Both the position numbers and the translations under genes were made by a program. Below are positions 3,848 to 49,810 of a DNA stretch of 64,000 bases, piece after piece. This DNA is from Bacillota bacterium. GTDB lineage: Bacteria > Bacillota_I > Bacilli_A > RFN20 > CAG-826. The stretch lies in NCBI GenBank assembly GCA_030834445.1, contig JAURFC010000001.1, forward strand, positions 286,963 to 350,962, read 5' to 3'. How positions within the stretch are numbered: position 1 is the stretch's first letter; each line of letters opens with the position of its first letter. The notes below the pieces were generated by a model, which saw only the letters and a list, made by a program, of their open reading frames with translations, ran no database searches and was not told the origin of the DNA.

Positions 3848-4672
3848 ATGAAACGACCGATCATTGGTATGATTTACGATTTTGACCGTACATTAGCCAT
3901 CGAAGATTTGCAAAATTTTAGTTTTATTCCGAAACTTGGAATGACCCCTGAACAATTTTGGAAAATCACGAATGAAAACTCTGAAAAAACCGGCATGGAA
4001 AAAATTCTTTCCTACATGTATGTGATGATTCAAGAAAGTCAAAAAAAGGGCATTCCACTTACAAAAGCGTATCTTGAAAGCCTAGGAAAAGATATTCGTT
4101 TTTTCCCAGGTCTCAATACATGGTTTCAACGCATCAATAACTTTGGTCTAGAACAAGGTGTCCAAGTCGAACATTACATCATTACCTCCGGCACACGTGA
4201 AATTATCATGGGCTCACCGATTGCCAAAGAATTCAAAGCCGTCTTTGGCTGTGAATTTCTCTTTACCGGACCAAACAAAGTAGCAACCTGGCCAAAAAAT
4301 ACGATTAACTACACGATGAAAACACAATACTTCTTCCGTATTACCAAAGGTGTCCTCGACCCAACTAACGATGAAAAAGTGAATGAGCGTACCAAAGAAA
4401 AACGGATTAAAAATCGTAATTTAATTTATATTGGTGATGGATTAACGGATGTTCCCGCAATGTTACTTGCTAAGGAAAATGGCGGTAAATCGATTGCTGT
4501 TTACGCAAAAAACCAAGAAGAAAAAGCCAAGCAATTGGTGGCTGATGATCGCGTTAACTTTATTTGTGAAGCGGATTATCGCTCCGACTCCATGCTCGAT
4601 AAAGTTGTCAAACTGACGATTCAACAAATGGCGATCACCGAAGCTTTAAGCCATCGCGAAGTGAAAGGATAA
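3848..4672 (+). CDS. HAD-superfamily hydrolase (subfamily IB-like phosphatase)
   Basis: Motif I DFDRTL lies near the N-terminus and motif IV is IYIGDGLTDVPAM. The protein is 274 aa. Confidence 0.6.
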   Translation: MKRPIIGMIYDFDRTLAIEDLQNFSFIPKLGMTPEQFWKITNENSEKTGMEKILSYMYVMIQESQKKGIPLTKAYLESLGKDIRFFPGLNTWFQRINNFGLEQGVQVEHYIITSGTREIIMGSPIAKEFKAVFGCEFLFTGPNKVATWPKNTINYTMKTQYFFRITKGVLDPTNDEKVNERTKEKRIKNRNLIYIGDGLTDVPAMLLAKENGGKSIAVYAKNQEEKAKQLVADDRVNFICEADYRSDSMLDKVVKLTIQQMAITEALSHREVKG

Positions 4673-7087: not shown

Positions 7088-7163
7088 GGATGTTTAGCTC
7101 AGCTGGGAGAGCATCGCCTTTACACGGCGGAGGTCGGGGGTTCGAACCCCTCAACATCCACCA
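7088..7163 (+). tRNA. tRNA-Val (anticodon TAC)
   Basis: A 76-nt cloverleaf with acceptor GGATGTT/AACATCC, anticodon loop TTTACAC, TTCGAAC T-loop and an encoded CCA. Confidence 0.9.
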
Positions 7164-7189
7164 GGTAGTACCCGTGAGTTGATCACCTT

Positions 7190-7273
7190 GGAGGCTTAGC
7201 GAAGCGGCCAAACGCAGCTGACTGTAAATCAGTTCCTTCGGGTTCGGTGGTTCGAATCCACCAGCCTCCACCA
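7190..7273 (+). tRNA. tRNA-Tyr (anticodon GTA)
   Basis: An 84-nt tRNA with a long variable arm, acceptor GGAGGCT/AGCCTCC, anticodon loop CTGTAAA and an encoded CCA. Confidence 0.9.
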
Positions 7274-7282
7274 GTCCATTGT

Positions 7283-7357
7283 TGGGGTATAGCCAAGTGG
7301 TAAGGCAATAGACTTTGACTCTATCATTCCCTGGTTCGATCCCAGGTACCCCAGCCA
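7283..7357 (+). tRNA. tRNA-Gln (anticodon TTG)
   Basis: A 75-nt tRNA with acceptor TGGGGTA/TACCCCA, anticodon loop CTTTGAC and CCA. Confidence 0.9.
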
Positions 7358-7363
7358 AACAAC

Positions 7364-7440
7364 CTCCCGCTAGCTCAGTTGGTTAGAGCATTTGCCTTTT
7401 AAGCAAAGGGTCGAAGGTTCGAGTCCTTCGCGGGAGACCA
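7364..7440 (+). tRNA. tRNA-Lys (anticodon TTT)
   Basis: A 77-nt tRNA with acceptor CTCCCGC/GCGGGAG, anticodon loop CTTTTAA and CCA, near-identical in arms to B. subtilis tRNA-Lys. Confidence 0.85.
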
Positions 7441-7446
7441 TTGTCT

Positions 7447-7533
7447 GCCCAGGTGGCGAAATTGGTAGACGCACAGGACTTAAAATCCTGCGGTAGCGAT
7501 ACCGTGCCGGTTCAAGTCCGGCCCCGGGCACCA
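7447..7533 (+). tRNA. tRNA-Leu (anticodon TAA)
   Basis: An 87-nt class II tRNA with D-arm GGTGGCGAAATTGGTAGACGC, anticodon loop CTTAAAA, a long variable arm and CCA. Confidence 0.9.
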
Positions 7534-11449: not shown

Positions 11450-13072
11450 TTACATACTTTCTAATGCGGTAATACCGCATAAACGGAGTGCGTTTGCCAA
11501 AACCATTTGACTTGCTTTCACAAGCGCTAATCGCGATTGTGAGAGTTCTTTTTGATCTCGGTCAATAACCCGCCTATTAGTATAGAAACTATGCGTATAA
11601 CTTGCAAGGAGTTGAATGTAATTCGTGATCTTGGAAGGTTCTTTTTCTTTGGCCGCATCAAGGACAACTTGAGGGAAAGCAGCAAGATGTTTTAATAAAT
11701 CGACTTCTTCCGGTTCTTCTAGGCGCGGTGCTTTTTCATCCATGCCAATATCTGCCCCGTTTTTTAATAAGGTGCTTAAGCGGGCATGGGCATATTGGGC
11801 ATAGTAAAGTGGATTGACGTTGCTCATGGTTTTTGCGAGATCTAAATCAAATTCCATCGGTTGATGATACGAACGCGCCAAAATAAAATAACGCGCAGCA
11901 TCTTTACCCACTTCTTCGACTAAATCTCTAAACGTTATACCTTTTCCTGTCCGTTTACTCATCTTCACTTCTTGACCTTGTTGAACGAGGGTCACAAGTT
12001 GCATGACGACAACGTCTAACACATCCTCCCCGTAACCAAGCATTATAAGGGCTGCTTTCATCCGGGAAATATATCCGTGATGATCGGGACCAAGAACATC
12101 AATGAGTTGGGTTGATCCTCGCTTCAATTTATCTTCATGATAAGCAATATCCGGTAAAAAGTACGTCATTTGACCATCGGATTTAATCAAAACGCGATCT
12201 TTATCATCGCCTCGGGCGGTAGTCTTTAAGTAGGTGGCGCCTTGGTCTACATAGACAAACGGTTGAAGGCGTTTTAAAACATCTTCAATCATCGATGTAG
12301 CCCGCAGTTCTTTTTCGGAACGATATACATCAAAGACAACCCCTAAGGATGCTAGGTCCTCACGAATACGGGTTAATTCTTTCTCCATGGCATAATGTTT
12401 AAAAAAGTCTTCCTCATAGTGATTTTCATATTGGTTGCCCGCGGTATCCACAAGTTCTTGCGCAATGGCAATGATGTCTGGTCCGTAGTAACCATCCTCG
12501 GGTAACGTCATCGCATGCCCTAAATGTTCCATGTAGCGGCAATAAAGAGATCGGCCTAAATTTTGTATTTGGGCACCAGCGTCATTAATATAAAATTCTT
12601 TGGTTATGGTATAACCGACATGTTTTAATAGTGTCGCGATCGCATCGCCTAATGCCGCACCACGTGCATGAGCGACATGCATCGGACCGGTAGGATTGGC
12701 AGAAACAAATTCAATATTCATGGTTTTGCCTTCGCCGATGGTCGATTTCCCATAATCTTTACCTAATGCAAAAATGGTGGAAATGAGCGAGGATAATTCT
12801 GCTTTTTTAATCGTAAAGTTTAAAAAACCTGGCCCTGCGACATCAATTTTTTCAACGACATCTAAGACTAAATGCGTTTGAATGTATGCGGCAAGTTCAT
12901 TTGGTTTTTTACCAAGTTGTTTCGCGTAACGTAAACATACATTGCTGGCATAATCACCAAATTTATGGTCTTTGGTCGTTTCAATGACAATCTCGTTTTC
13001 TTGTAACGTTACATTAAGTTTCAAAAAAATTTCGATTAACGCTTTTTTTAAGGCAAGAATAATCGGATTCAT
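11450..13072 (-). CDS. argS: Arginine--tRNA ligase
   Basis: The class I HIGH motif is SANPTGPMHVAHARGA and the KMSK-like motif is VKMSKRTG. The protein is 540 aa. Confidence 0.9.
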   Translation of the reverse strand: MNPIILALKKALIEIFLKLNVTLQENEIVIETTKDHKFGDYASNVCLRYAKQLGKKPNELAAYIQTHLVLDVVEKIDVAGPGFLNFTIKKAELSSLISTIFALGKDYGKSTIGEGKTMNIEFVSANPTGPMHVAHARGAALGDAIATLLKHVGYTITKEFYINDAGAQIQNLGRSLYCRYMEHLGHAMTLPEDGYYGPDIIAIAQELVDTAGNQYENHYEEDFFKHYAMEKELTRIREDLASLGVVFDVYRSEKELRATSMIEDVLKRLQPFVYVDQGATYLKTTARGDDKDRVLIKSDGQMTYFLPDIAYHEDKLKRGSTQLIDVLGPDHHGYISRMKAALIMLGYGEDVLDVVVMQLVTLVQQGQEVKMSKRTGKGITFRDLVEEVGKDAARYFILARSYHQPMEFDLDLAKTMSNVNPLYYAQYAHARLSTLLKNGADIGMDEKAPRLEEPEEVDLLKHLAAFPQVVLDAAKEKEPSKITNYIQLLASYTHSFYTNRRVIDRDQKELSQSRLALVKASQMVLANALRLCGITALESM

Positions 13073-14523
13073 AAGGCGTTAATTCTCGCAATCGTCAATG
13101 TCTTCCCTAAAACAGGAATGAGTGCTGCCATTTCCACCCCATGAAGTTGCCCAGTTAAAGCAAGGCGAATCGGCATAAACAAGGGTTTTCCTTTGATTCC
13201 CGTCGTAGTTTGAACGGCTTTAAACAACACTTTGACCGATTCCGGCGTTAATGTTTCTAAGCGCGATAGCTCCTCTAAAAAAGCGGCAACAGCTCGAGGC
13301 GTTTCCGGTAAGGCAAGAATCGCTTTTGCTTCTTCATCCCAGTTTGGTGACGGCGCTAAAATGGGTTTCATCAAGTCGATGACATTTTCACCAAACGTAA
13401 TTTGTTCTTGGAAAAGTCGAGCAACCGCAAGCACTTGGTTTTTTGATAAGTCAGTCGGTGCGAGGGCTAAGGCTTTTTGAACAAACGGGTCAATGAAGGA
13501 AACATACGCTGTTTCACTTAACGCTTTGATGTATTGATGGTTTAACCAATTGAGTTTTTGAACATCAAAAAAGGAGGGTGATTTTGAGAGTCGTTGGGGA
13601 TCAAAAGCAGCAATGGCTTCCTCTTTGGTAAACATTTCTTGTGTCCCTTCTGGAGCCCAACCGAGTAATAAAATAAAATTAAAAATTGCTTCAGGTAAAT
13701 ATCCTAATTGACGATATTGCGACATGAATTGGACAATGGAAAGATCGCGTTTGGATAACTTTTTCCCTTGTTCATTGACGATCAAGGTCATATGCCCAAA
13801 TTGAGGTGGTGTCCATCCTAAATAATCATAAATTTGTAATTGTTTTGGGGTATTGGATAAGTGTTCTTCACCGCGAAAAACATGGGAGATATCCATCAGA
13901 TAATCATCAATGACGACTGCATAATTATAGGTGGGAATGCCGTTTGATTTGATAAGTACCCAATCCCCAATATCGTCGTTATTAAACGAAACGTCGCCAC
14001 GAACGAGATCATGGAATGTAAACGTTTTGTGATCTTCTAATTTCAGGCGAATCACTGGTTTACGGCCTTCTTCTTCAAAGGCACGACGTTGAGCATCGGT
14101 TAAATGCAAACAGCGACGGTCATATTGTGGTGCAACGATCCCCCGAGCCATTTGTTCTTCACGGGATTGTTCAAGTTCTGCTTCGCTACAATAGCATGGA
14201 TATGCCTTTCCTTCTTTGACGAGTTGTTGCGCATACGTTTGATATGTATCGAGGCGTTCCATTTGCCGATACGGGGCGTAGCGTGGATTCGTTTTTAAAG
14301 GCGATTCATCGGGAACAATACCAAGCCAGGCTAAGTCATGAAGTTGGCTCACTTCCCCGCCTTCGACATTGCGTTCAATATCCGTATCTTCGACACGAAT
14401 AATAAAATCGCCCCCTTGTTTTTTTGCAAATAAATAATTAAAAAGCGCGGTCCGGGCGCCTCCAATATGTAAAAAACCTGTTGGGGATGGCGCGTAACGA
14501 ACACGAATACGTTGTGGGTTCAT
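13069..14523 (-). CDS. gltX: Glutamate--tRNA ligase
   Basis: YAPSPTGFLHIGGARTALFNYLFAKK is the HIGH motif and KLSKR is also present. The start is taken at MMNPQRIRV (485 aa), 1 nt after the ychF stop. The longer ORF-track N-terminus would overlap ychF. Confidence 0.8.
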   Translation of the reverse strand: MNPQRIRVRYAPSPTGFLHIGGARTALFNYLFAKKQGGDFIIRVEDTDIERNVEGGEVSQLHDLAWLGIVPDESPLKTNPRYAPYRQMERLDTYQTYAQQLVKEGKAYPCYCSEAELEQSREEQMARGIVAPQYDRRCLHLTDAQRRAFEEEGRKPVIRLKLEDHKTFTFHDLVRGDVSFNNDDIGDWVLIKSNGIPTYNYAVVIDDYLMDISHVFRGEEHLSNTPKQLQIYDYLGWTPPQFGHMTLIVNEQGKKLSKRDLSIVQFMSQYRQLGYLPEAIFNFILLLGWAPEGTQEMFTKEEAIAAFDPQRLSKSPSFFDVQKLNWLNHQYIKALSETAYVSFIDPFVQKALALAPTDLSKNQVLAVARLFQEQITFGENVIDLMKPILAPSPNWDEEAKAILALPETPRAVAAFLEELSRLETLTPESVKVLFKAVQTTTGIKGKPLFMPIRLALTGQLHGVEMAALIPVLGKTLTIARINAL

Positions 14524-14527
14524 CATA

Positions 14528-15628
14528 TTAAACATTAAAGCGGAAAAAGATGATATCTCCATCTTTGACCACATAATCCTTTCCTTCCATACGGAGTTTT
14601 CCAGCTTCCTTGACCGCCAGTTCACTGCGTAATGTTTTGATATCGTCATAACGATAAATTTCGGCTTTGATAAAACCTTTTTCAAAGTCGGAATGAATAA
14701 TTCCTGCGCACTGCGGTGCCGTCATGCCACTAGTAAAGGTCCATGCGCGGCATTCATCTTGTCCCACGGTAAAATAGGTCGAAAGATTTAATAAGGAATA
14801 CGTGGCACGAACTAATTTATTGAGTCCAGGTTCACTTACGCCAAGGGAGGTCAAAAATTCTTGTTTTTCTTGCCCGTCGAGTTGTGCGATTTGGCTTTCA
14901 ATTTCACAGGAGATGGCAATCACACTCGCCTGATCACGTTTTGCCCGTTCCACCACCGTTTGATAATACGGGTTGGCTGCGAGTGAGGCATAACCATCTT
15001 CTTGAATGTTCGCAACAAATAAAATCGGTTTTAATGTGAGTAAGGAGGTGGCCGATAGAAGATTTTTTTCTTCAGGTGTTAATCCCATTTGGCGCACCGG
15101 TTTTTCACTCACTAACCAGGCTTTAACTTTCTCAAGTAAGGCAAGTTCCTGAATGGCGATTCGATCGCCCCCTTTGGCTTTACTTGATACTTTGTCGATA
15201 CGACGTTGCACGGTATCAAGGTCTGAAAGAATGAGTTCTAAATCAATAATATTTATATCGCGTAACGGATCCACCGTGTTTTCAACGTGAATAATATCGG
15301 GATTATCAAAGCAGCGAACCACTTCAACAATCGCATCCGCTTCGCGGATTGCGGCTAAAAATTGATTCCCTAAGCCTTCACCTTGACTCGCCCCACGGAC
15401 TAATCCGGCAATATCGACAAAATCAACGGTCGCAAAAATTGTTTTTTTCGGTTGAAAAAGCGCACTCAAATCAAGAAGACGTTCATCTTCGACTTTGACA
15501 ACACCCGTGTTGGGATTAATGGTTGCAAAAGGGTAATTGGCCGCTTCCACTTGCGCATTTGTAATCGCGTTAAATAAGGTGGATTTACCCACATTCGGAA
15601 GTCCAACAATGCCTGCTTTCAGTCCCAT
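14528..15628 (-). CDS. ychF: Ribosome-binding ATPase YchF (Obg-family GTPase)
   Basis: MGLKAGIVGLPNVGKSTLFNA is the G1 motif. The 366-aa protein has a C-terminal TGS domain. Confidence 0.9.
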   Translation of the reverse strand: MGLKAGIVGLPNVGKSTLFNAITNAQVEAANYPFATINPNTGVVKVEDERLLDLSALFQPKKTIFATVDFVDIAGLVRGASQGEGLGNQFLAAIREADAIVEVVRCFDNPDIIHVENTVDPLRDINIIDLELILSDLDTVQRRIDKVSSKAKGGDRIAIQELALLEKVKAWLVSEKPVRQMGLTPEEKNLLSATSLLTLKPILFVANIQEDGYASLAANPYYQTVVERAKRDQASVIAISCEIESQIAQLDGQEKQEFLTSLGVSEPGLNKLVRATYSLLNLSTYFTVGQDECRAWTFTSGMTAPQCAGIIHSDFEKGFIKAEIYRYDDIKTLRSELAVKEAGKLRMEGKDYVVKDGDIIFFRFNV

Positions 15629-15682
15629 AATTTTTTACCTTTACCATTATAAATGAAAAGCTTGAAATAATGTAGAAAAAAA

Positions 15683-15710
15683 GTCGCTTTTTGAGCGACT
15701 TTTTATTGAG
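15683..15710 (-). terminator. Rho-independent terminator downstream of csp
   Basis: The hairpin AAAAAGTCGCTTTTTGAGCGACTTTTT has T-runs in both orientations. Confidence 0.7.
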
Positions 15711-15731: not shown

Positions 15732-15929
15732 TTAAAGTTTTTTAATGTTCTTCGCACGGGGACCACGATCGGAATCTTCAACTTCGAATTCTACTTCTTC
15801 ATCTGCTTCTGCGGTCTTGTAACCATCCATAAGGATTGAAGAGTGGTGGAAGAATACATCTTTACCATCTTCAGCGCGAATGAAGCCATAGCCTTTTTCT
15901 TTGTTGAACATCTTGACTTTGCCTTTCAT
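15732..15929 (-). CDS. cspA: Cold-shock protein (CspA family)
   Basis: The 65-aa product has KGKVKMFNKEKGYGFI (RNP1) and VFFHHSSI (RNP2). Confidence 0.9.
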   Translation of the reverse strand: MKGKVKMFNKEKGYGFIRAEDGKDVFFHHSSILMDGYKTAEADEEVEFEVEDSDRGPRAKNIKKL

Positions 15930-16026: not shown

Positions 16027-18621
16027 TTACCAAAGTTTTTGGATTTGTGGAGAAACCTCATAAAGTACGAGCTTTCTACCTAAACCAAAAAAACCAACGA
16101 ATCCCATTCCTAAAATGAGAAAGATTACCCAAGGAAATGCGTAGGAATCACGCATTCCAAGTTGGGATGCCCATAAGGATTGAAGCAATCCATCAAGGGG
16201 AATAAAACTAAAACTAACACTTAAAAATAATATGAAACAAAGATGCATTAATTTCACATCCATGAATAAATGAAGGTCATTCTGAGAAAAACCATCATGT
16301 GCCAACGTCACCAAAGCGTCAATTTCTCCTTCCAGTTGGTGCAAAAATTGTTGTAAAAAAAGGAATAAACTTGGTATAAGAAAGAGTAACGTTAATCCGA
16401 GTAACAGCGCATTAAAGTAGAAACGAAGTTGTTGAATCGAAGCACTTAATTGTTGCAAGGGTTCCGTTTGAATCCAATCTTGAAGGTCAATGGGTTCATC
16501 ACCAAAATAGGCATAGTTTTCTGGCTGTAAGGAGGACGATCCGATGGGCGTATTCAAAAGAAGATAATATTCCCATTGTAGCGGGGAGAGATAAATCACA
16601 AAGTTTTCCTGCTCGATGATGTAATCAATAGGAATGTTTGTATGAATACGGAACGTATCCAAAAAGAGTGACAAATGAAGCTCCTCTGAGATTTGCACAT
16701 TTAATAACGTGGCGAGACTACGTGATATGCCCACCTGATTCCACGCGAGTGTGGCATCATACGTGTTTAACGTGACACTCGCTTGAGCTCCTAAATAAAG
16801 ATGACTTCGCGCCGTTTCAGGAGGTGGTTCTGTTGCCAACCATTCTAAGAGCGTAAAGGATTGGAATGCGTCAAGCCACTCTGCTTCGATTAATGACACC
16901 TTCGTCCAAAATAGAGGAATCATAAAGCCTTGCATCCATTGTTTAGGAAGAAATTGATAACCTAATTGCGAGTGAACCATCCCCTTTTCTCTTAAGCCGT
17001 CATGGGGTGGTTTTTGCAAGGAAATCGGTCGGGAATGTTTCCAAAGTCGATCACTCCAGTCATCCTTTTTTTGAAGATCCCAACCATGATAAAAAGGGTC
17101 ATGAAGAAAGGCATTTATGAAAGAAGGACGATCTTCTTGAAGAATTCGATACGTATAAGGAATATGGGTTTCCATCGGAACAGCATCCATGGGCGATGTC
17201 GGAAAACGCAGCATCGTTTCAAGTAAATGGGTTGGATAATCCAAACGGGAATGAAAAACGGCAAAATGATCATAAGCAAAGATGCCAACAATCTCTAAGG
17301 CAAGTTCATTGTCATAATTCCACCGCGGTTGCTGTATTGAAAAATAAACGAGCGGACGACGTGTTTGCACGTAACGATCCACCGTTTCAAAGGTAGGAAA
17401 TAAACCCCATTGTGTTGAGAAAAAAGTAAGTAAAGCAGGCGGAACACCAAGTAGCATTTCCGTTTCAAGGAGGGTCATTTGTTGATGAGGGAAAGGGGCG
17501 GCATACCCCACATAGTTCACTTCCAGTAAAGATGTTATTGAAAAACCAGGTATAAAAGTTTGAAAACCTCCGTTTTCTAAAAACCCTATTGCTCGGGGAA
17601 AAAACGTATCAAAATACGTAGTATCGAAATCTTTTTGAATGGAGGCATGCGGATGATAGGCAGAAAAAATCTCAATCTCTTCTTCCGATGGTACTGAAGA
17701 ATGATTGTCCAAAGCATAAAGTGGTTCTAACCATTGATAATCTCCTCCTATCATGGTTTTAGCCCACGTTTGAACATACGTATGGATATACATCGAGGTA
17801 CTTCCAATCAGGACCATAAGTAAAAGGATGAAGGTTGGAAGTAATGTAGAAATTCCCTGCTTATTTCGCCGCCAAACCCGTTGATGATACTGCCATAAAA
17901 ACGACCAAGAAAATGCGTGATTCAAACTTTTTTCATGCATCATTCGTACTTTCTTACTCGTTGAATCGAGCTGTGAACTTGGTTGTGGAAAGACGAGCCT
18001 TTCATGCGCAAAGGTTGAAAAATATTCCGCATGATGGGTCGCAACGATTACAAGGTGTTGTAAACTCAATCTCTTGATTAGCTGAGCCAGGCGTTGTTTT
18101 TGATAACCATCGAGACCATCCAAAGGTTCATCCAGCAAGATTATTTTTGGTTTTCCTAATGTGGCTAATAAAACCGCAAGACGTTGTTGTTGGCCCCGCG
18201 ATAATGTCGCGATGGTTTGATGTTTTTTTACATCGGGTATTTCCTGTTGGAACCAAGCATGAGGAAATGTCAGCACACAATGTAATCGCATCACTTGTTG
18301 AATTAATTCTTCCACCATTGCTGCTTTGAGTAATTCTGATTGCTGACGAACGGTATGAACGAGGTGTTGCCGTAATGATAATCGCTGCGATAACGATAAT
18401 TTTTGGAGCAAAACACCATCCACGATGATGCTCCCCATCTGAGGTTTTAACCCTTGAATGAGTCGTAAAAATGTCGTTTTTCCTGATCCACTTTCTCCTA
18501 AAAGCAAGACAAGCCCTTGGGAAGGCGATGTCCAGGAAAAATGGTTAAGAATCCCACGTTGACCATAACCATGTGTGACTTGATCAAAGACGATCAAAAA
18601 TCGATGGCCTCCAATACCCAT
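16027..18621 (-). CDS. Fused ABC ATPase / FtsX-like permease (MacB-type architecture), highly divergent, with a large extracytoplasmic domain
   Basis: The N-terminal NBD has Walker A GESGSGKTT, a degenerate signature LSRGQQQRL, Walker B ILLDEP and an H-loop ATHH. A TM helix is followed by an extracytoplasmic domain of about 480 aa rich in W, H, Q, F and P, then 3 C-terminal TM helices (FtsX-like). The protein is 864 aa. Confidence 0.6.
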   Translation of the reverse strand: MGIGGHRFLIVFDQVTHGYGQRGILNHFSWTSPSQGLVLLLGESGSGKTTFLRLIQGLKPQMGSIIVDGVLLQKLSLSQRLSLRQHLVHTVRQQSELLKAAMVEELIQQVMRLHCVLTFPHAWFQQEIPDVKKHQTIATLSRGQQQRLAVLLATLGKPKIILLDEPLDGLDGYQKQRLAQLIKRLSLQHLVIVATHHAEYFSTFAHERLVFPQPSSQLDSTSKKVRMMHEKSLNHAFSWSFLWQYHQRVWRRNKQGISTLLPTFILLLMVLIGSTSMYIHTYVQTWAKTMIGGDYQWLEPLYALDNHSSVPSEEEIEIFSAYHPHASIQKDFDTTYFDTFFPRAIGFLENGGFQTFIPGFSITSLLEVNYVGYAAPFPHQQMTLLETEMLLGVPPALLTFFSTQWGLFPTFETVDRYVQTRRPLVYFSIQQPRWNYDNELALEIVGIFAYDHFAVFHSRLDYPTHLLETMLRFPTSPMDAVPMETHIPYTYRILQEDRPSFINAFLHDPFYHGWDLQKKDDWSDRLWKHSRPISLQKPPHDGLREKGMVHSQLGYQFLPKQWMQGFMIPLFWTKVSLIEAEWLDAFQSFTLLEWLATEPPPETARSHLYLGAQASVTLNTYDATLAWNQVGISRSLATLLNVQISEELHLSLFLDTFRIHTNIPIDYIIEQENFVIYLSPLQWEYYLLLNTPIGSSSLQPENYAYFGDEPIDLQDWIQTEPLQQLSASIQQLRFYFNALLLGLTLLFLIPSLFLFLQQFLHQLEGEIDALVTLAHDGFSQNDLHLFMDVKLMHLCFILFLSVSFSFIPLDGLLQSLWASQLGMRDSYAFPWVIFLILGMGFVGFFGLGRKLVLYEVSPQIQKLW

Positions 18622-20329
18622 AACTTATGAAACATGAACCGAAAACGATGCCCCCATATAATAACCACCCTTCCAACAGCCATAACGGCAAGCTTTCAAC
18701 AACCATTCCTTGAAAGAGAATAAGAACAAAACCCATGGCACTCAAGGATAAACCCCACACGATCGGATGAAGCTGCCAAATCAATGCTTGAATGAGTGAC
18801 GTCGAAGGAATCCCAAGGGCTCGCCAGTGAAGGATGGGTTTTCGTAATTGCGTAAGTATGCGTTTATGTGTGAAATGCATCCAAGAAAACCACACCATTC
18901 CAAGCATGATTAAGAGCACATCGCGCCATAATAACAGTGTCATTTCCACTTCATGTTGTTGTGAAAGTTGCTCTAAAAAGGGAACGCGAATACGAAGGTG
19001 ATGGTCTTTTAAGACATAATTAAGATGATCAAACGTTGCGTAAGGAACATTAAGGGTTAACGGCCAGGATGAATCAAGGTTATCAATAGAAGAAAGTAAC
19101 GAACGTTTGGGCGATAACCATAAGTGTTGTTGAATCCATTGATGGAACCATTCATACGGTAAAAAAACCATAGGAGATTGCCATGGCGAACGAATTCGAT
19201 AGACATGGCGCATGACAATCTCGGTTTGAATTGTCCACGTGTAAGCAGTTGTATTGTCATACCATGTCACTTCAAACGTCCATAAAAACGGAGATTTGAA
19301 GGGTGGTCCATACACATCTGCAATAACATACGATTCATTGTGACCATGTTGAACCCACGCGATTTGATATTCCGTCTGGTCGCTTATTAAACGATTAGGG
19401 AGTAAACCTCTAAGATCATAATGAATAAAATGTGTGGGTTTTCCTAAAAATAGCAATCGAATCATTTCAAGATTAGGAACGCGTGTTTGCACGAGTGTAT
19501 ACGGGGAATTTTCAAGCGGAACCGTGACAACTTCTTCAATGGAACCCATCCACGTTTGATTTTGAAGTATCGGTATCGTAGCCTGGTGGAGCATCACGCC
19601 ATGTTGAAAAAGCCAATTACCGATAAACCCAAGCTGAAGCATGCTTATTGCCAGCCAATGCCATGCTCTTTTCTTGATTTTGATCGGAGGTACTTTCACT
19701 TTTTTTACACGTTTAGAAAGAGGATGTCTCTTGGTATTGGGTGAATGCGATAATGCATGCCATTCCACCATCCCTTCTTCTTGTAATTCAAGATGCAGTG
19801 ATGCAGCTTCGCGCCAAAGTGATAAATGGCTTGCAATCATTACAGGTTTTGTCTGACTGACTTCCAAAATCCAAGTTTTGACAGCCATTCGAGATGCCTC
19901 ATCAAGACCCGAGCATGGTTCATCGAGTAAAAATCCATCTGCCTCTTGTGATAATAATAACGTCAGAAAAAAACGCGTTTGTTCACCCCCCGATAAATGC
20001 ATGACATGTTGATGCAACGGGATATGGTTTAAAAATAAACGATTCAAAACCGAAGAATGTAAATTAAAAAACGCTAAATAATATCCAACGGTGGCATGGG
20101 GTGTCCAATCGATCGGGTGGTGCAAATGTAACCAACGTTTACCCTTGACGACAATGGTTCCATCCTGAGGGAAATTGCGATGACGAATGAGCGAAAATAA
20201 CGTCGATTTTCCTCGACCGGATGGCCCAGAAACCCAGGTAATACCTTGCCCGGGGATAGTACCGTGAAGATCATGAAAAAGATAACGATGATGCGAAAAA
20301 TAAAACGTAACATGATGAAAACGAATCAC
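18584..20329 (-). CDS. Fused ABC ATPase / FtsX-like permease (MacB-type architecture), divergent paralogous partner
   Basis: Walker A GPSGRGKST, signature LSGGEQTRF, Walker B FLLDEP and H-loop ASH. A K-rich linker and TM helix are followed by an extracytoplasmic domain of about 250 aa and 3 C-terminal TM helices. The protein is 581 aa with a GTG start, and it overlaps the downstream gene by 38 nt. Confidence 0.6.
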   Translation of the reverse strand: MIRFHHVTFYFSHHRYLFHDLHGTIPGQGITWVSGPSGRGKSTLFSLIRHRNFPQDGTIVVKGKRWLHLHHPIDWTPHATVGYYLAFFNLHSSVLNRLFLNHIPLHQHVMHLSGGEQTRFFLTLLLSQEADGFLLDEPCSGLDEASRMAVKTWILEVSQTKPVMIASHLSLWREAASLHLELQEEGMVEWHALSHSPNTKRHPLSKRVKKVKVPPIKIKKRAWHWLAISMLQLGFIGNWLFQHGVMLHQATIPILQNQTWMGSIEEVVTVPLENSPYTLVQTRVPNLEMIRLLFLGKPTHFIHYDLRGLLPNRLISDQTEYQIAWVQHGHNESYVIADVYGPPFKSPFLWTFEVTWYDNTTAYTWTIQTEIVMRHVYRIRSPWQSPMVFLPYEWFHQWIQQHLWLSPKRSLLSSIDNLDSSWPLTLNVPYATFDHLNYVLKDHHLRIRVPFLEQLSQQHEVEMTLLLWRDVLLIMLGMVWFSWMHFTHKRILTQLRKPILHWRALGIPSTSLIQALIWQLHPIVWGLSLSAMGFVLILFQGMVVESLPLWLLEGWLLYGGIVFGSCFISYGYWRPSIFDRL

Positions 20330-20356: not shown

Positions 20357-20551
20357 TTATTTCAATCGTCGTTTAATAAGAGGATGTAAATGATCCCGTG
20401 ACATCATTAAGATGGTTTGACAACCAAGACATTTCAATTTGACATCGGCTCCTAAGCGAACCACTTCAAATAACGATGAACGTGTTAAACACGGATGCGG
20501 TTTTTTTAACTCCAAGGTTTCCCCTAATTGAAATTTGAATCGATCATCCAT
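20357..20551 (-). CDS. DUF951-family small protein
   Basis: FKFQLGETLELKKPHPCLTRSS..VVRLGADVKLKCLGCQTILMMSR matches the conserved DUF951 pattern (KKPHPCG...GADIKLKCLGC). An alternative upstream start lies at 20578. Confidence 0.55.
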   Translation of the reverse strand: MDDRFKFQLGETLELKKPHPCLTRSSLFEVVRLGADVKLKCLGCQTILMMSRDHLHPLIKRRLK

Positions 20552-32187: not shown

Positions 32188-32522
32188 TTGTAACCCTGTA
32201 AGCCATGTTCTGTAATCGATGATCATTTGTCTCTATCAAAGATAGGAAGGTTTGACTTCGTTTCATCATTCCTCCTGCCCCTACCAAATTTGGGTTTCTC
32301 GCTTGTGGGGTTTACCGCGTTTCACCTAGACATTTCTATCTAGTATCGTCACTGTGGCACGTTATGGTTGAATCCAACCCGAAGGTAAGGATTCGTTCCG
32401 CCGTCATATGTTGCCATATGCCTAACGTTATTTATTCCGTTAGCGCAATCACTACGAGCATCACAGCTCGTGCGAGCATGGACTTTCCTCTAGTTTGCAC
32501 TAGCGATCATCCGGGTTACGAT
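32188..32522 (-). ncRNA. rnpB: RNase P RNA, Bacillus type (type B)
   Basis: The minus-strand sequence contains AGAGGAAAGTCCATGCTCGCAC (P4 5' strand), GTGCCACAGTGACGA, ACGCGGTAAACCCC, AGCGAGAAACCCAAATTTGGTAGGGG and ACAGAACATGGCTTACAG (P4 3' strand). These are near-identical to conserved blocks of B. subtilis rnpB. P1 is GTAACCC/GGGTTAC and the ends are approximate to about 5 nt. Confidence 0.9.
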
Positions 32523-32941: not shown

Positions 32942-33667
32942 ATGAAAAAATTAGCACACCTTTTAAAAGGAAAAAAACATTTAGTCTTCATTGATTTTGA
33001 AGGTACACAACTTTCTCATGAAATGATTGCTTTTGGTGCCATTAAAGTCGATCTCAATGAGGATTTTTCTATTAAGAAAAAATATAAAGGTATTTATAAA
33101 CTCGTTCGCCCCAAAAAACCAATCGGAGACTTTGTCACTAAACTCACTAATATTACTGAAATTGATGTTTTTGATAAAGGAGTTCCTTACAAAAAAGCAC
33201 TCGCAATTTTACGGCAATATATTGGTAGAACGTTTAAAAAAAGTAAATTTATTTTCTTTGGAAATCATGATGTACGCATCCTTCATCAGTCCTTATTACA
33301 TTCTCCTGATGCTGATAAAGAGACCCAATCGTATCTCGTGCAAGAAAGTCTCGATTTTTCTCAATTTTTAGCCGAATTTATCCGTGATGAAAAAGGCAAT
33401 CCTCTTTCCTTAGTTAATAACCTACTTTACTTTGATCACGCTTTTCAAGGCATGGCTCATAACGCCCTTGATGATGCTAAAAATCTCATGCACTTATACC
33501 ATCTTGTGTTAACCAAAAAAGAAAAATTATTTGAAGGTTACCTCCGTGTACTTAAACACCAAAAACATCTTCCTTATCCGATGAAAAAACTCCTTCACCT
33601 TTTAGAACAAGGCCAGACTGTCAATCACGAACAATTCATTAGGCTCATTAAGGATTATTTAGCATGA
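32942..33667 (+). CDS. DEDDh (DnaQ-like) 3'-5' exonuclease
   Basis: Exo I is VFIDFEGTQ (D..E) and Exo III is HNALDDAKNL (H....D). The 241-aa gene shares the ATGA overlap with the recU start. Confidence 0.65.
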   Translation: MKKLAHLLKGKKHLVFIDFEGTQLSHEMIAFGAIKVDLNEDFSIKKKYKGIYKLVRPKKPIGDFVTKLTNITEIDVFDKGVPYKKALAILRQYIGRTFKKSKFIFFGNHDVRILHQSLLHSPDADKETQSYLVQESLDFSQFLAEFIRDEKGNPLSLVNNLLYFDHAFQGMAHNALDDAKNLMHLYHLVLTKKEKLFEGYLRVLKHQKHLPYPMKKLLHLLEQGQTVNHEQFIRLIKDYLA

Positions 33668-34248
33668 TTCAATATCCCAAAGGCATTAAAAAACCTGTAA
33701 AATCAACCCGAAAAAAAGTCGATCAACTCGTCACGAATTCGTATAAAAACCGTGGGCTGTCTTTTGAACAAGAAATTAATGCAAGTAATGCGTATTACCG
33801 GGAAGTCAATCGCGCCATCATCACAAAGCGACCCACCCCGATTAATGTGGTGAAAGTCGATTATGCACATGGGGCTAAAATTACCCATGCGTATTTTGAA
33901 AAACAATCGACCACGGACTATAACGGCATTTATCAAGGCCGTTATGTTGACTTCGAGGCGAAATCAACCCAATCTAGCACTTCCTTCCCTCTTGCCAATA
34001 TTACCTCCCATCAAATGGCACATCTTCAAGCGATTATCGATTACGGAGGTCTTGCCTTCTTTTTAATTCACTTTGTCCGCAAAGATGAAGTGTATGTCGT
34101 CAAAGCAGAACATATTCTTTGGCATAAAGTCACTCAAAAACGGCAATCGATTCCTTATTCATTTATTCAAGAAAAAGGCGAAAGAGTTACCCTCGATCTC
34201 CAGCCCCGTTTACGGTATCTTGATGCCGTTGATCGTTTATTTTTTTAA
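33664..34248 (+). CDS. recU: Holliday-junction resolvase RecU
   Basis: GLSFEQEINASNAYY...VDYAHG...YVDFEAKST are RecU catalytic-core motifs (D..E.K). The protein is 194 aa. Confidence 0.85.
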   Translation: MIQYPKGIKKPVKSTRKKVDQLVTNSYKNRGLSFEQEINASNAYYREVNRAIITKRPTPINVVKVDYAHGAKITHAYFEKQSTTDYNGIYQGRYVDFEAKSTQSSTSFPLANITSHQMAHLQAIIDYGGLAFFLIHFVRKDEVYVVKAEHILWHKVTQKRQSIPYSFIQEKGERVTLDLQPRLRYLDAVDRLFF

Positions 34249-34880
34249 AGATTTTTATTTTTTTCTTTGCAAAGATCGACTATCGGACAGGCTGAGCACA
34301 TTGGTTTTTTTGCGGTGCAACGATAACGACCAAAGTGAATCAATTGATGATGAAATAAAATGTAACGTTCGGGGGGAAGCGCTTTACGAAGTTTTTTTTC
34401 TGTGACAAGAACATCGTCTTTTCTTTGACGAAAACCAAGGCGATAGGCCAAGCGATGAACATGGGTATCCACAGCAATTTCAGGGATTCGAAAAAGTTCA
34501 GCGCGCACGACATTGGCTGTTTTAATGCCGACACCAGGTAGCGCAGTTAATGCGGCTTTATCCGAAGGAACGCGTCCTTCATGCAACGTTAAAAGTTGCT
34601 GCGCAATTGCTTTAACATGGTGAGCTTTCGTTCGATAAAGACCAATGGTTTGAATGACGGATTCAATTGCAGATAGCGGGGCATCCGCCAAGGCTGCTAA
34701 TGAAGGAAAACATTCAAACAATACGGGTGTCACTTTATTCACCGCTTGATCGGTTGTTTGTGCGGATAAGACCACAGCGATTAAAAGTTCGTAATCTTTG
34801 CGATAAAGTAACTCACAACCCACATGAGGATAATGAGTATCAAGGAACGTGAGGATTCTATTTTTTGTCGGAAGATCCAT
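34245..34880 (-). CDS. nth: Endonuclease III (DNA glycosylase/AP lyase)
   Basis: The HhH-GPD element is LPGVGIKTANVV...VDTHV and the [4Fe-4S] cluster loop is CTAKKPMCSACPIVDLC. The protein is 211 aa. Confidence 0.9.
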   Translation of the reverse strand: MDLPTKNRILTFLDTHYPHVGCELLYRKDYELLIAVVLSAQTTDQAVNKVTPVLFECFPSLAALADAPLSAIESVIQTIGLYRTKAHHVKAIAQQLLTLHEGRVPSDKAALTALPGVGIKTANVVRAELFRIPEIAVDTHVHRLAYRLGFRQRKDDVLVTEKKLRKALPPERYILFHHQLIHFGRYRCTAKKPMCSACPIVDLCKEKNKNL

Positions 34881-35505
34881 CGTGGGTAAATAAGTCCATA
34901 TCCGATTGAACGGAACGATGGTCTTGGGAGGGACCGGGTGTCCCTTCGCGTTGAATATTTTCGCGAATCGTCAGTTTTTGAAGGAGCTTATCCATATGAC
35001 GAATCGACTTTTTATGCGCATAGACACTTTCATTTAACACGTCCAAAATCATCGCTTCGGTGTAGCCAAAATTGAGCCAATCACGAATGCGGGATACTTC
35101 GAGTGGGGAAAGGGTTCTTAAAAACGCTTTTTCAATGGCCTGAAAGATGTTCTTACCTTGTTCAAGATTCACTTCTTGGGTTTGGCGAATCATTTGTTGC
35201 TGAAATTGTTTGTGCAATAAATGTTTAATCGGACGAATCGAGGTAATGGTTTTTCCTTGTTCATGCACGTATTCAATTAAGTTTTTATCCAAAAGTTTGA
35301 CGAGAATCGCATCGATATCTGCTAATGGTAATTTCATTTTTAAAGAGAGTAATTCGGGCGTAATGAATGCATTTTCTTGACGAAGAAGTTGATCCATCAT
35401 TAACAAGACCATCACAAAAGGTTCATCAAAACCTAAATTTTTATAATGTTCCAACAAAAGGGAACGAAAATCAACGGCATCAAATAAGGGATCCATTGGC
35501 GTCAT
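34858..35505 (-). CDS. dnaD: Replication initiation/membrane attachment protein DnaD
   Basis: The N-terminal winged-helix region is followed by the C-terminal DnaD-like domain YTEAMILDVLNESVYAHKKSIRHMDKLLQK. The start is the ATG at 35505, which overlaps the upstream gene's stop as TAATG. The ORF-track TTG lies 18 nt upstream. Confidence 0.75.
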   Translation of the reverse strand: MTPMDPLFDAVDFRSLLLEHYKNLGFDEPFVMVLLMMDQLLRQENAFITPELLSLKMKLPLADIDAILVKLLDKNLIEYVHEQGKTITSIRPIKHLLHKQFQQQMIRQTQEVNLEQGKNIFQAIEKAFLRTLSPLEVSRIRDWLNFGYTEAMILDVLNESVYAHKKSIRHMDKLLQKLTIRENIQREGTPGPSQDHRSVQSDMDLFTHDGSSDKK

Positions 35506-36215
35506 TATAACATGTCCCCCCAACGCAACAGGCCAAACGCATAAAGTTCTTCGCGCCCTAAGGGCCGATCGATAAACGGTATCTTTTTGATTTCTTGAAT
35601 TACTTTTTGTTCGTTGAGGCGCTCGATAAATCCAAGATTATCTTGAATCGCTTGTTTTAAGGTGGGTTCATAGCTAAAACCTAATGTGACTTTAAAACGA
35701 ATGGCCCGCACGATGCGTAAAGGATCTTCTTGAAAGCGAAGGTTGGGTTCGCCTATCATTCGAATGATTTTCTTTTCTAAGTCCGCAATTCCCCCTACAA
35801 AGTCTAAAACATCACCTTGGGAATTGATGTAGAGTGCATTCATCGTAAAGTCACGGCGCGTCACATCACGCTCAGGATCACGAATAAAGAAAAGCTGACC
35901 GGGATGACGCGCATCAAGGTAAGAACTTTCCACACGTAAGGTTGTAATATCAAATTTTCGATCTAGATGATAAACACTAACATGTCCATAATGCGCAAAT
36001 CGGTCATTCGCATCATAAAGAAACGTTAGCATCTCACTGGGGAGTGCATCTGTGGCACAATCAAATTCTTGAAAAGATCGTTTTAAGAGATAATCGCGAG
36101 CGGACCCCCCTGTCATCCAAAGATGAAAACCATGTTTTTCAAATTCTCGAGCAAGGGAATAAAAGGCGTCAAGGTTCATGAAAAGATTATATAAGAGTTT
36201 GTTTTTAATAAGCAA
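35505..36215 (-). CDS. Class II nucleotidyltransferase, CCA-adding/poly(A) polymerase family, head+neck only (truncated relative to canonical CCA enzymes)
   Basis: The head motifs are WMTGGSARDYLL and QEFDCATDA, and the neck motif is RIVRAIRF. The protein is only 236 aa and has no body/tail or HD domain. An alternative ATG at 36179 would give 224 aa. Confidence 0.6.
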   Translation of the reverse strand: MLIKNKLLYNLFMNLDAFYSLAREFEKHGFHLWMTGGSARDYLLKRSFQEFDCATDALPSEMLTFLYDANDRFAHYGHVSVYHLDRKFDITTLRVESSYLDARHPGQLFFIRDPERDVTRRDFTMNALYINSQGDVLDFVGGIADLEKKIIRMIGEPNLRFQEDPLRIVRAIRFKVTLGFSYEPTLKQAIQDNLGFIERLNEQKVIQEIKKIPFIDRPLGREELYAFGLLRWGDML

Positions 36216-49776: not shown

Positions 49777-49810
49777 AATTATGCTTTGTTTAGAGGAGGA
49801 TTCTAAAGAA

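Follow-up and report, generated by a model that had tools for sequence, protein, structure and literature searches.

Two adjacent genes, designated A and B, encode paralogous type VII ABC half-transporters that probably act together as an asymmetric A:B heterodimer working by mechanotransmission. Both lie in the window, by which we mean the whole 64,000-nucleotide stretch of DNA that was analyzed, and their features are collected in Table 1. Type VII systems (MacB, LolCDE, FtsEX, HrtBA, BceAB, and YbbAP) use intracellular ATP to drive extracytoplasmic work, and the layouts catalogued for them (PMC5985334) are homodimers, either fused or unfused, unfused heterodimers, and fused permeases. The A-B pair is a new arrangement of this known machine; a conserved pair of different units, each fused to its own nucleotide-binding domain (NBD), with one doubled ectodomain and one non-canonical ATP site, would constitute an additional layout.

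Table 1. Features of the A-B locus, given as positions in the window
Feature	Position	Strand	Remarks
Hairpin and T-run after csp	15675..15704	-	Read by eye; absent from the list of the automatic scan
csp, cold-shock-domain gene	15732..15929	-	Directly downstream of B
Gene B, NBD-fused type VII ABC half-transporter, 864 aa	16027..18621	-	ATG start
B TM2-TM4, residues 721-863	16030..16461	-	FtsX-like bundle
B ectodomain, ~residues 292-720, ~430-460 aa	16462..17748	-	Mixed alpha/beta, high-confidence model
B TM1/stalk helix, residues 254-291	17749..17862	-	Hydropathy and AlphaFold2 model
B nucleotide-binding domain, ~residues 1-215	17977..18621	-	Pfam ABC_tran and motifs
Candidate B start	18595..18612	-	GGAGG (18612-18608), 10-nt spacer, TTG (18597-18595)
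Gene A, NBD-fused type VII ABC half-transporter, 581 aa	18584..20329	-	GTG start
A TM2-TM4, ~residues 463-569	18623..18943	-	FtsX-like helical bundle with homology to B TM2-TM4
A ectodomain, ~residues 245-462	18944..19597	-	Single alpha/beta module
A TM1, ~residues 222-244	19598..19666	-	Preceded by a Lys/Arg-rich cytoplasmic linker
A nucleotide-binding domain, ~residues 1-190	19760..20329	-	Pfam ABC_tran and motif alignment
DUF951 small protein	20357..20551	-	Directly upstream of A

The initial annotation of this DNA had described two overlapping minus-strand reading frames of 581 and 864 aa, and both the coordinates and the 38-nt overlap (with B read from its ATG) were confirmed. Their neighbors are mutS, mutL, miaA, DUF951, csp, and ychF. 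DUF951 directly precedes A in the window, as it does at eight other, related loci (L001-L007 and L012), csp directly follows B in all loci that include downstream DNA, and the block DUF951-A-B-csp-ychF is conserved across an uncultured Bacilli/Erysipelotrichaceae-like lineage. A-type and B-type genes are adjacent in all 11 of the 11 loci that include upstream DNA, overlapping by 4-38 nt or abutting, with A divided into separate NBD and permease genes in two of them. The GC content of A-B (0.40-0.42) equals that of the flanks, as had been noted, and together with conservation of the block this supports the view that the pair belongs to the vertically inherited core genes rather than to a recent transfer. 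They are not the terminal genes of their string, as first thought: they are followed by csp and ychF, also on the minus strand, and no clear intrinsic-terminator-like site occurs before the hairpin after csp. No partner gene or regulator hinting at a substrate was found in the neighborhood, and the fixed place beside DUF951, csp, and ychF across the lineage points to an undescribed housekeeping envelope function.

Within the conserved block, A and B evolve fastest, with 32% and 43% identity, respectively, to their counterparts in L001, compared with 62-100% for the flanking genes. Measured against the 93%-identical L003, dN/dS values were 0.22 (A) and 0.17 (B), which indicates clear purifying selection on both, in keeping with functional genes. 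Stops and frameshifts were absent from A and B in approximately 10 divergent genomes, and lengths and topology are conserved among relatives; the frameshifted pseudogenes that had been named as grounds for rejecting the initial proposal were thus not encountered, the genes being intact in all relatives compared.

Both proteins have TM1, a large extracytoplasmic loop between TM1 and TM2, and then three further TM helices, according to hydropathy and, in agreement, AlphaFold2 secondary structure; basic residues precede TM1 in each (in B, the cytoplasmic segment RVWRRNK). Pfam ABC_tran (PF00005) matched the N terminus of A (2.6e-12, 48 bits) and of B (7e-21, 75.7 bits), the cutoff being 25 bits, and the proposed MacB/FtsX type VII topology with a fused N-terminal NBD is supported. 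Pfam FtsX (PF02687) matched neither A nor B even at E<=10, and MacB_PCD (PF12704) matched neither protein nor any of 10 family members. A profile of B residues 231-864, with the ATPase removed, nevertheless reached 168 representative proteins at E<=1e-3, mostly 860-940 aa long and aligned end to end, among which distant members (P0287, P0288, P0291, P0293, and P0348) score Pfam FtsX at TM2-4 with 25.8-50.1 bits (cutoff, 25.5). Pfam FtsX was likewise found in distant A orthologues, those of L009, L012, and P0470. Comparison of the C-terminal parts of A and B by hhalign (probability, 94.9%; E, 4.7e-8) identifies A, at the level of sequence profiles, as a paralogue of B.

Predicted structures agree with this placement. 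The B model (pLDDT 93) matches type VII permeases only, with LolC/LolE as the top Foldseek match (9rld_C, E 2e-6), and it aligns over 270-298 residues to LolE, MacB, and YtrF; since this is more than the helical bundle, part of the ectodomain matches as well, and that part may include the Porter subdomain that type VII proteins carry directly joined to the stalk helices. At most ~300 of the 634 modeled residues align to any solved relative, however, and approximately half of the B ectodomain, which is about twice the usual size, has no structural counterpart. It appears to be internally duplicated, residues ~382-475 repeating with ~623-695, and W434, Y436, H457, E468, Y555, G565, F566, and S633 within it are conserved across the family. 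The A model is weaker (pLDDT 74.5 overall, mostly 72-89 per block in the ectodomain); its best structural matches are BceB and LolE, with probabilities up to 0.99, and its best TM-score is to LolE (TMq 0.40). We assign B to the type VII/MacB-FtsX superfamily with confidence and A with moderate confidence. The earlier impression that the proteins belong to no recognizable FtsX, MacB, BceB, or LolCE family thus holds for direct HMM scans but not for the profile of B or its model, and of the alternative outcome then envisaged, a known family with a typical ectodomain, the superfamily was obtained while the B ectodomain proved atypical. Rapidly evolving membrane proteins can evidently fall under Pfam thresholds yet be found by profile search and predicted structure.

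The two NBDs differ in which motifs they have kept. That of B has Walker A (GESGSGKTT), the Q-loop Gln (RQQ), Walker B (LLDEP), and the H-loop (ATHH), but its signature, LSRGQ, departs from the canonical LSGGQ at position three, a departure that its clade conserves. The A NBD retains Walker A (GPSGRGKST), the signature LSGGEQ, Walker B (LLDEP), and the H-loop His (ASH), and has lost the Q-loop Gln, reading HHP where orthologues read FQ. Relative to distant orthologues it also carries deletions of ~16 and ~13 aa, the former lying just upstream of HHP. Degenerate signatures had been proposed for both proteins; only that of B deviates, whereas LSGGEQ in A corresponds to the family consensus LSGGEKQR. 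The initial annotation overlooked the loss of the A Q-loop Gln and the two deletions. Distant family members have canonical motifs in both A- and B-type NBDs, and the clade of the window combines the Q-loop loss and deletions in A with LS(R/F/K)GQ in B. In a head-to-tail dimer these changes fall in the same composite site, which supports an asymmetric heterodimer. A pattern of one consensus site is not universal, because the A-type signature is also altered in L007 (LSVGQ) and both proteins of L008 vary at the third signature position with their Q-loops retained. In some cases LSGGQ tolerates a change at its third position. Both A and B also retain the catalytic Glu after Walker B, whose loss ordinarily marks a site as degenerate (PMC7544095).

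In the model we favor, each half-transporter would contribute an N-terminal ATPase, TM1, an ectodomain, and a three-helix FtsX-like bundle to an A:B heterodimer assembled in the cytoplasmic membrane. A canonical catalytic site would be formed by Walker A, Q-loop, Walker B, and H-loop of B with the LSGGEQ signature of A, and a non-canonical site, probably binding ATP with slow turnover, by Walker A of A, with its lost Q-loop Gln, and the LSRGQ signature of B. Like other type VII systems, the pair may relay closure of the NBDs to its ectodomains along long TM1/TM2 stalk helices, with A supplying one ~220-aa module and B its putatively duplicated domain, so that work would be performed outside the membrane. 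The likeliest job is to extract or handle, at the outer leaflet, some component of the envelope that is hydrophobic or lipid-linked; alternatively, the pair may drive an extracellular partner protein. A heterodimer had been suggested initially, and the suggestion gains indirect support from the invariant pairing of the genes, their overlap or abutment, and the shared composite site.

It is unlikely that A and B are instead two independent MacB-like homodimers, left side by side by tandem duplication and serving separate substrates. Characterized NBD-fused type VII proteins (MacB) are homodimeric, as is FtsEX (PMC5985334), and Walker A, Walker B with its Glu, and the H-loop persist in both proteins. 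Against this, A and B are never apart in 11 loci of very deep divergence, and their genes overlap or abut; A2 would have two sites without the Q-loop Gln and B2 two LSRGQ sites, whereas a heterodimer gives one fully canonical site; and the ectodomains are very unequal. A further reading, in which selection on both genes has relaxed and their unusual composition and missing motifs are signs of decay and lost function, is very improbable. Such decay would fit their standing as the most divergent genes of the block, with dN/dS above that of most neighbors, the missing Q-loop Gln, a Pfam FtsX domain no longer detectable, and the GTG start of A (kept in four genomes) with its weak Shine-Dalgarno sequence; the dN/dS values nevertheless remain those of purifying selection, reading frames, lengths, and topology are preserved, the B model is very confident, and residues of its ectodomain are conserved across the whole family.

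Another alternative, which we consider quite improbable, is that the pair stands in for FtsEX in this lineage as a fused heterodimer, with ectodomains that activate a cell wall hydrolase in growth or division instead of handling a membrane substrate. The enrichment in Trp, His, and Gln reported initially was confirmed (A, 4.8% W and 6.7% H compared with 0.9% and 2.6% in the other long ORFs of the window; B, 7.5% Q compared with 4.4%), and glycan-binding domains often have aromatic, His- and Gln-rich surfaces. The genes look constitutive and sit among core genes, FtsE is the best NCBIfam match of the B NBD, and the check for canonical ftsE or ftsX found none within the 64-kb window, although these may lie outside it. 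The FtsE scores (TIGR02673; B, 86.9 bits; A, 54.9 bits) are, however, far under the cutoff of 264.85, the match to FtsX is essentially to the helical bundle only (192 residues aligned), and no hydrolase or coiled-coil adaptor gene, nor any other partner gene, adjoins A-B. FtsX is approximately 300 aa long with a small ectodomain, whereas the ectodomains here span 220 and ~430-460 aa. A significant Sabre subdomain is missing from FtsX ectodomains (PMC5985334).

Among known systems, MacB is a homodimer that functions together with TolC and the adaptor MacA. A and B, by contrast, are two unlike fused units, and the ectodomain of B is about twice as large and looks internally duplicated. MacAB-TolC proper was rejected because PF12704 gave no match and no MacA-type membrane-fusion gene occurs in any locus compared. 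FtsE and FtsX are separate proteins in a homodimeric complex, whereas A and B are fused and two to three times longer. The homodimeric state of MacB and FtsEX counts against a heterodimeric reading of A and B. LolCDE resembles the pair in having paralogous type VII permeases (LolC and LolE) in a heteromer, and its substrate, anchored by lipid, is pulled out of the outer leaflet. LolD, however, is a separate subunit present in two identical copies, which makes the ATP sites of LolCDE symmetric, and sequence identity to A/B is only ~10%. Lol serves outer membrane lipoprotein sorting in diderms, whereas the lineage here is Bacilli (RNase P class B and MAG names). HrtBA, YtrEF, YbbAP, and BceAB, several of them from Firmicutes, have separate NBD subunits unlike A/B, and the permeases BceB and YbbP are fused, with 10 TM helices each. 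A two-component system accompanies BceAB; a BceAB-type module was rejected in view of four TM helices in each protein, the fused ATPase, and no two-component system among the neighbors. The heterodimeric ABC exporters TM287/288, BmrCD, and Rv1273c/72c, which have one degenerate ATP site, share with A/B two adjacent genes for TMD-NBD half-transporters (PMC5216877, PMC4046567, PMC12038006) and, for A/B at sequence level, non-canonical NBD residues concentrated in one composite site. They differ in being type IV exporters, with 6-TM ABC_membrane domains and a C-terminal NBD, and in that the catalytic Glu, which A and B keep, is usually missing from the degenerate site (PMC7544095).

The A-B pair would offer a natural test of whether mechanotransmission requires two active ATP sites. 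More broadly, the pair could be an envelope machine that is essential to, and defines, an uncultured Bacilli order with a probably reduced genome, and the first type VII system to combine two unlike half-transporters, each fused to its NBD, with just one catalytic ATP site and an ectodomain duplicated in tandem. In that case the pair would have taken over a core task (such as FtsEX-like wall remodeling or lipid/lipoprotein extraction) whose usual apparatus the lineage lacks. We regard this extended reading as possible but doubtful.

The true start of B is probably the TTG at 18597 rather than the upstream ATG. Read from there, the protein has 856 aa, matches the N termini of homologues, and overlaps A by 14 nt, and the position of this start region inside the 3' end of A suggests translational coupling.

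A and B, which the initial annotation had likened to no recognisable family, are divergent members of the MacB/FtsX-type (type VII) ABC superfamily. Both open reading frames are present as originally described, overlapping by 38 nt, and hydropathy bears out the topology proposed for each protein: one transmembrane (TM) helix preceded by basic residues and, beyond a long loop, three TM helices at the C-terminus. Pfam scans of the full-length proteins detected ABC_tran alone, at the N-terminus (A, 2.6e-12; B, 7.1e-21), with FtsX and MacB_PCD absent, and nucleotide-binding domain (NBD) matches of a generic kind were all that Pfam and NCBIfam returned for the full-length sequences and, at E<=10, for the C-terminal parts. 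The NCBIfam matches were sub-threshold, the best for B being FtsE (86.9 bits; cutoff, 264.85). Word-indexed searches recovered three full-length relatives for B (its own cluster, plus P0002 and P0003 at 42-43% identity) and two for A (its own cluster and one 72%-identical fragment), overlooking the A orthologues encoded in two related loci, L001 (the contig carrying P0002) and L002. Against PDB sequences, a full-length B profile matched NBDs only, and a C-terminal B profile matched nothing significant.

An exhaustive search of 1.84 billion cluster representatives with an NBD-free profile (B residues 231-864) yielded 168 proteins at E<=1e-3, mostly of 860-940 aa and matched over the whole ectodomain and TM region. 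Ten of these were scanned with Pfam, and all ten carry an N-terminal ABC domain; the more distant of them (P0287, P0288, P0291, P0293, and P0348) exceed the FtsX gathering threshold exactly at TM2-TM4. Members of the B family bear generic source names ("ABC-type lipoprotein export system ATPase subunit"), and their organisms are MAGs labelled Erysipelotrichaceae, Bacilli, or Firmicutes bacterium. An AlphaFold2 model of the same B region, built from a 72-sequence alignment, had a mean pLDDT of 93.1 and a pTM of 0.85, and all 26 Foldseek hits in the PDB at E<=1e-3 were type VII permeases (LolC/E, HrtB, BceB, YbbP, and MacB), with Spr0695, YtrF, and FtsX further down the list at still high probability. 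The predicted structure thus leaves no reasonable doubt that B has the MacB/FtsX fold. For A, 13 usable sequences gave a moderate model (pLDDT 74.5), whose best Foldseek matches were BceB and LolE (TMq 0.40, probability 0.97-0.99), LolC, YtrF, and FtsX, at E values of only 1e-3 to 1e-2. The FtsX-type assignment predicted by this moderate model is backed independently by Pfam FtsX in distant A orthologues and by hhalign of the C-terminal A and B profiles (probability 94.9%, E 4.7e-8, over the ectodomain end and TM2-4). This paralogy beyond the NBD emerged only with deeper alignments, the NBDs alone having aligned in hhalign of shallow ones, and hhalign found no similarity between the two ectodomains.

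The B ectodomain comprises about 430-460 aa. No solved relative aligns with more than ~300 of the 634 modelled residues, which leaves about half of the ectodomain unmatched. Local hhalign identified an internal repeat (model residues 152-245 versus 393-465; probability 87.8%, E 3e-6), both copies of which open with an E-I-x-(L/I)-(G/S) motif, pointing with moderate confidence to a putative tandem duplication of an ectodomain module. Ectodomain residues W434, Y436, H457, E468, Y555, G565, F566, and S633 are conserved over all 72 B-family sequences, which implies that a functional surface is probably conserved.

The A-type gene lies directly 5' of the B-type gene, overlapping or abutting it, in all 11 loci with upstream DNA (the window, L001-L009, and L012). 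The contigs of P0002 and P0003 have the gene order of the window, including a 579-aa A orthologue, and the block mutS-mutL-miaA-DUF951-A-B-csp-ychF-gltX-argS is retained even in L004, whose B matches only at E 5e-12. L012 reads FTHFS-DUF951-A-B-csp-ychF, and upstream genes differ in L008 and L009; constant among the loci is A-B-csp, with ychF soon after. The two genes are therefore not the end of their string, as had been proposed, since csp and ychF continue 3' on the same strand, and the first convincing hairpin and T-run lies 3' of csp. Promoter and terminator scans returned fewer sites than expected by chance and so do not define the operon. The small DUF951 gene is nearly always directly 5' of A, and ychF is shortly 3' of B. 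If DUF951 and ychF are direct neighbours in Bacillus subtilis, as we take them to be, A-B-csp would have been inserted between them in the window's lineage.

Coordinates of A, B, and other features of the window
Feature	Position	Strand	Remarks
Gene A	18584-20329	-	GTG start, 581 aa
Gene B	16027-18621	-	ATG start, 864 aa
csp	15732-15929	-	cold-shock gene, downstream of B
DUF951 gene	20357-20551	-	64 aa, conserved Cys
gltX	13069-14685	-	mechanical ORF 538 aa, TTG, overlaps ychF by 158 nt
ABC half-transporter gene	57878-59650	+	590 aa, ABC_membrane and ABC_tran
ABC half-transporter gene	59653-61581	+	642 aa, ABC_membrane and ABC_tran
ORF	49781-51514	+	577 aa, weak PPIC-rotamase match only
ORF	51471-53081	+	536 aa, no Pfam match
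ORF	3848-4672	+	274 aa, no Pfam match
dnaD, nth, recU	33664-35523	-, -, +	dnaD and nth adjoin recU
RNase P RNA, class B	32194-32518	-	265 bits
tRNA cluster	7088-7533	+	Val, Tyr, Gln, Lys, Leu

The remainder of the window is housekeeping in character, including recA, RNase Y, the suf operon, gidA/gidB/parAB, der, cmk, and the RNase P class B RNA. Since the block is kept across distant relatives within such surroundings, the A-B pair is an old, vertically inherited core component of the lineage rather than a transferred island or defence module. The earlier argument against recent horizontal transfer holds, as the unremarkable GC of both genes equals that of the flanks and synteny persists between deeply diverged relatives. 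With core housekeeping genes as the only neighbours, involvement in defence or in a mobile element was also rejected.

Within this block, A and B stand out by their divergence. Protein identity to the P0002 contig is 62-100% for the flanking genes, 32% for A, and 43% for B, so that no other gene of the block evolves nearly as fast. The genome collection yielded a single species representative ("MAG: Bacilli bacterium isolate YM.12," 93% identity), relative to which neither gene has stops; the dN/dS values of A (0.22) and B (0.17), compared with 0.006 to 0.18 for the neighbours, indicate purifying selection, somewhat relaxed. These results rule out pseudogenes, a possibility raised in the initial annotation. 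The Trp, His, and Gln enrichment noticed there is correct: A contains 4.8% W and 6.7% H, versus 0.9% and 2.6% in other long ORFs of the window, B contains 7.5% Q versus 4.4%, and Lys is halved in both. Across the family, this enrichment, with Lys and Asn depletion, is confined to the window clade and its sister clade, distant members having 0.2-0.9% W. At the codon level, the K-to-Q and N-to-H shifts each amount to A becoming C in the first position, and the clades with skewed composition are the same as those with altered NBD motifs.

Both proteins of distant members are canonical, their motifs reading FQ (Q-loop), LSGGEKQR, and DEPTGxLD. A departs from this in the window and sister clades, where the Q-loop Gln is gone and the NBD is shortened by deletions of ~16 and ~13 residues (changes initially overlooked), although Walker A, Walker B, the H-loop, and LSGGEQ persist; in B, the signature alone is altered, to LSRGQ (LSFGQ or LSKGQ in some relatives). 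Of the two signatures first described as degenerate, that of B does deviate, whereas that of A is normal for the subfamily (consensus LSGGEKQR). In a head-to-tail NBD dimer, one site pairs A's own motifs with B's signature and the other pairs B's own motifs with A's signature. The defects of both proteins would thus fall in one site, leaving the other fully canonical. This pattern resembles heterodimeric ABC exporters with one degenerate ATP site (PMC5216877, PMC4046567, PMC12038006), although the usual hallmark of such a site is loss of the catalytic Glu (PMC7544095), which A and B both retain. As further caveats, the A-type NBD signature is altered in L007 (LSVGQ), and in L008 the third signature position varies in both proteins.

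From the constant pairing and the NBD asymmetry, we infer that A and B most likely form a heterodimeric type VII ABC complex, so that the original proposal of a heterodimer seems reasonable. In such a complex, the NBD dimer would be closed and reopened by ATP binding and hydrolysis at the canonical site, with the non-canonical site acting chiefly as a latch dependent on ATP, and the long TM1/TM2 stalks would carry the motion to the ectodomains. The favoured job, judged from the closest folds (LolCDE, HrtBA, YbbAP, and BceAB), would be to extract or otherwise handle a hydrophobic or lipid-linked molecule at the outer leaflet. The main functional rival is an FtsEX-like role in activating an extracellular enzyme. 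The 64-kb window contains no ftsE, ftsX, or two-component system. Layouts reviewed for the MacB family comprise fused homodimers, unfused homodimers, the unfused LolCE heterodimer, and fused 10-TM permeases (PMC5985334), and a pair of different NBD-fused units, as in A and B, is not among them. Independent homodimers of A and of B would match a reviewed layout and are less likely given the invariable pairing. Functional decay is also less likely: the motif losses in A stand beside dN/dS values that indicate purifying selection and reading frames free of stops. Literature searches found no description of an A-B pair, and what remains new in the putative heterodimer is its layout of two different fused halves, an apparently doubled ectodomain, and predicted asymmetric ATP sites; a conserved, presumably housekeeping role in an uncultured Bacilli lineage is likewise counted as new.

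Several additional observations concern the paired genes and their relatives. An alternative B start, TTG at 18597 with GGAGG 10 nt upstream, gives 856 aa (855-856 aa in homologues) and a 14-nt overlap with A, and may be the true start. The GTG start of A (20329) is common to all four genomes compared (the window, L001, L002, and the 93%-identical L003) and has little or no Shine-Dalgarno sequence, and the GGAGG of B lies within the 3' end of A, which suggests that the pair may be translated at a low, coupled level. In L007 (5246-7008) and L008 (1612-3586), A is split into an NBD gene (203 or 214 aa) and a permease gene (384 or 425 aa) beside a fused B, so that the family is naturally polymorphic for fission or fusion of this gene. 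In L004 (534-3050), mutS is called as two genes, of 745 aa and then 80 aa with MutS_C, which may be a genuine split or stem from a frameshift or an assembly error.

Elsewhere in the window, a second pair of ABC half-transporter genes is arranged as heterodimeric type IV ABC exporters usually are. The Pfam domain of gltX begins at residue 60 and its orthologue has 484 aa, so the true start probably lies ~54 codons downstream. No peptidoglycan-synthesis genes were seen among the annotated ORFs of the window, and no penicillin-binding-protein gene separates nth from recU, where ponA sits in B. subtilis. The class B RNase P RNA fits Bacilli/Firmicutes, and five tRNA genes form a single cluster.
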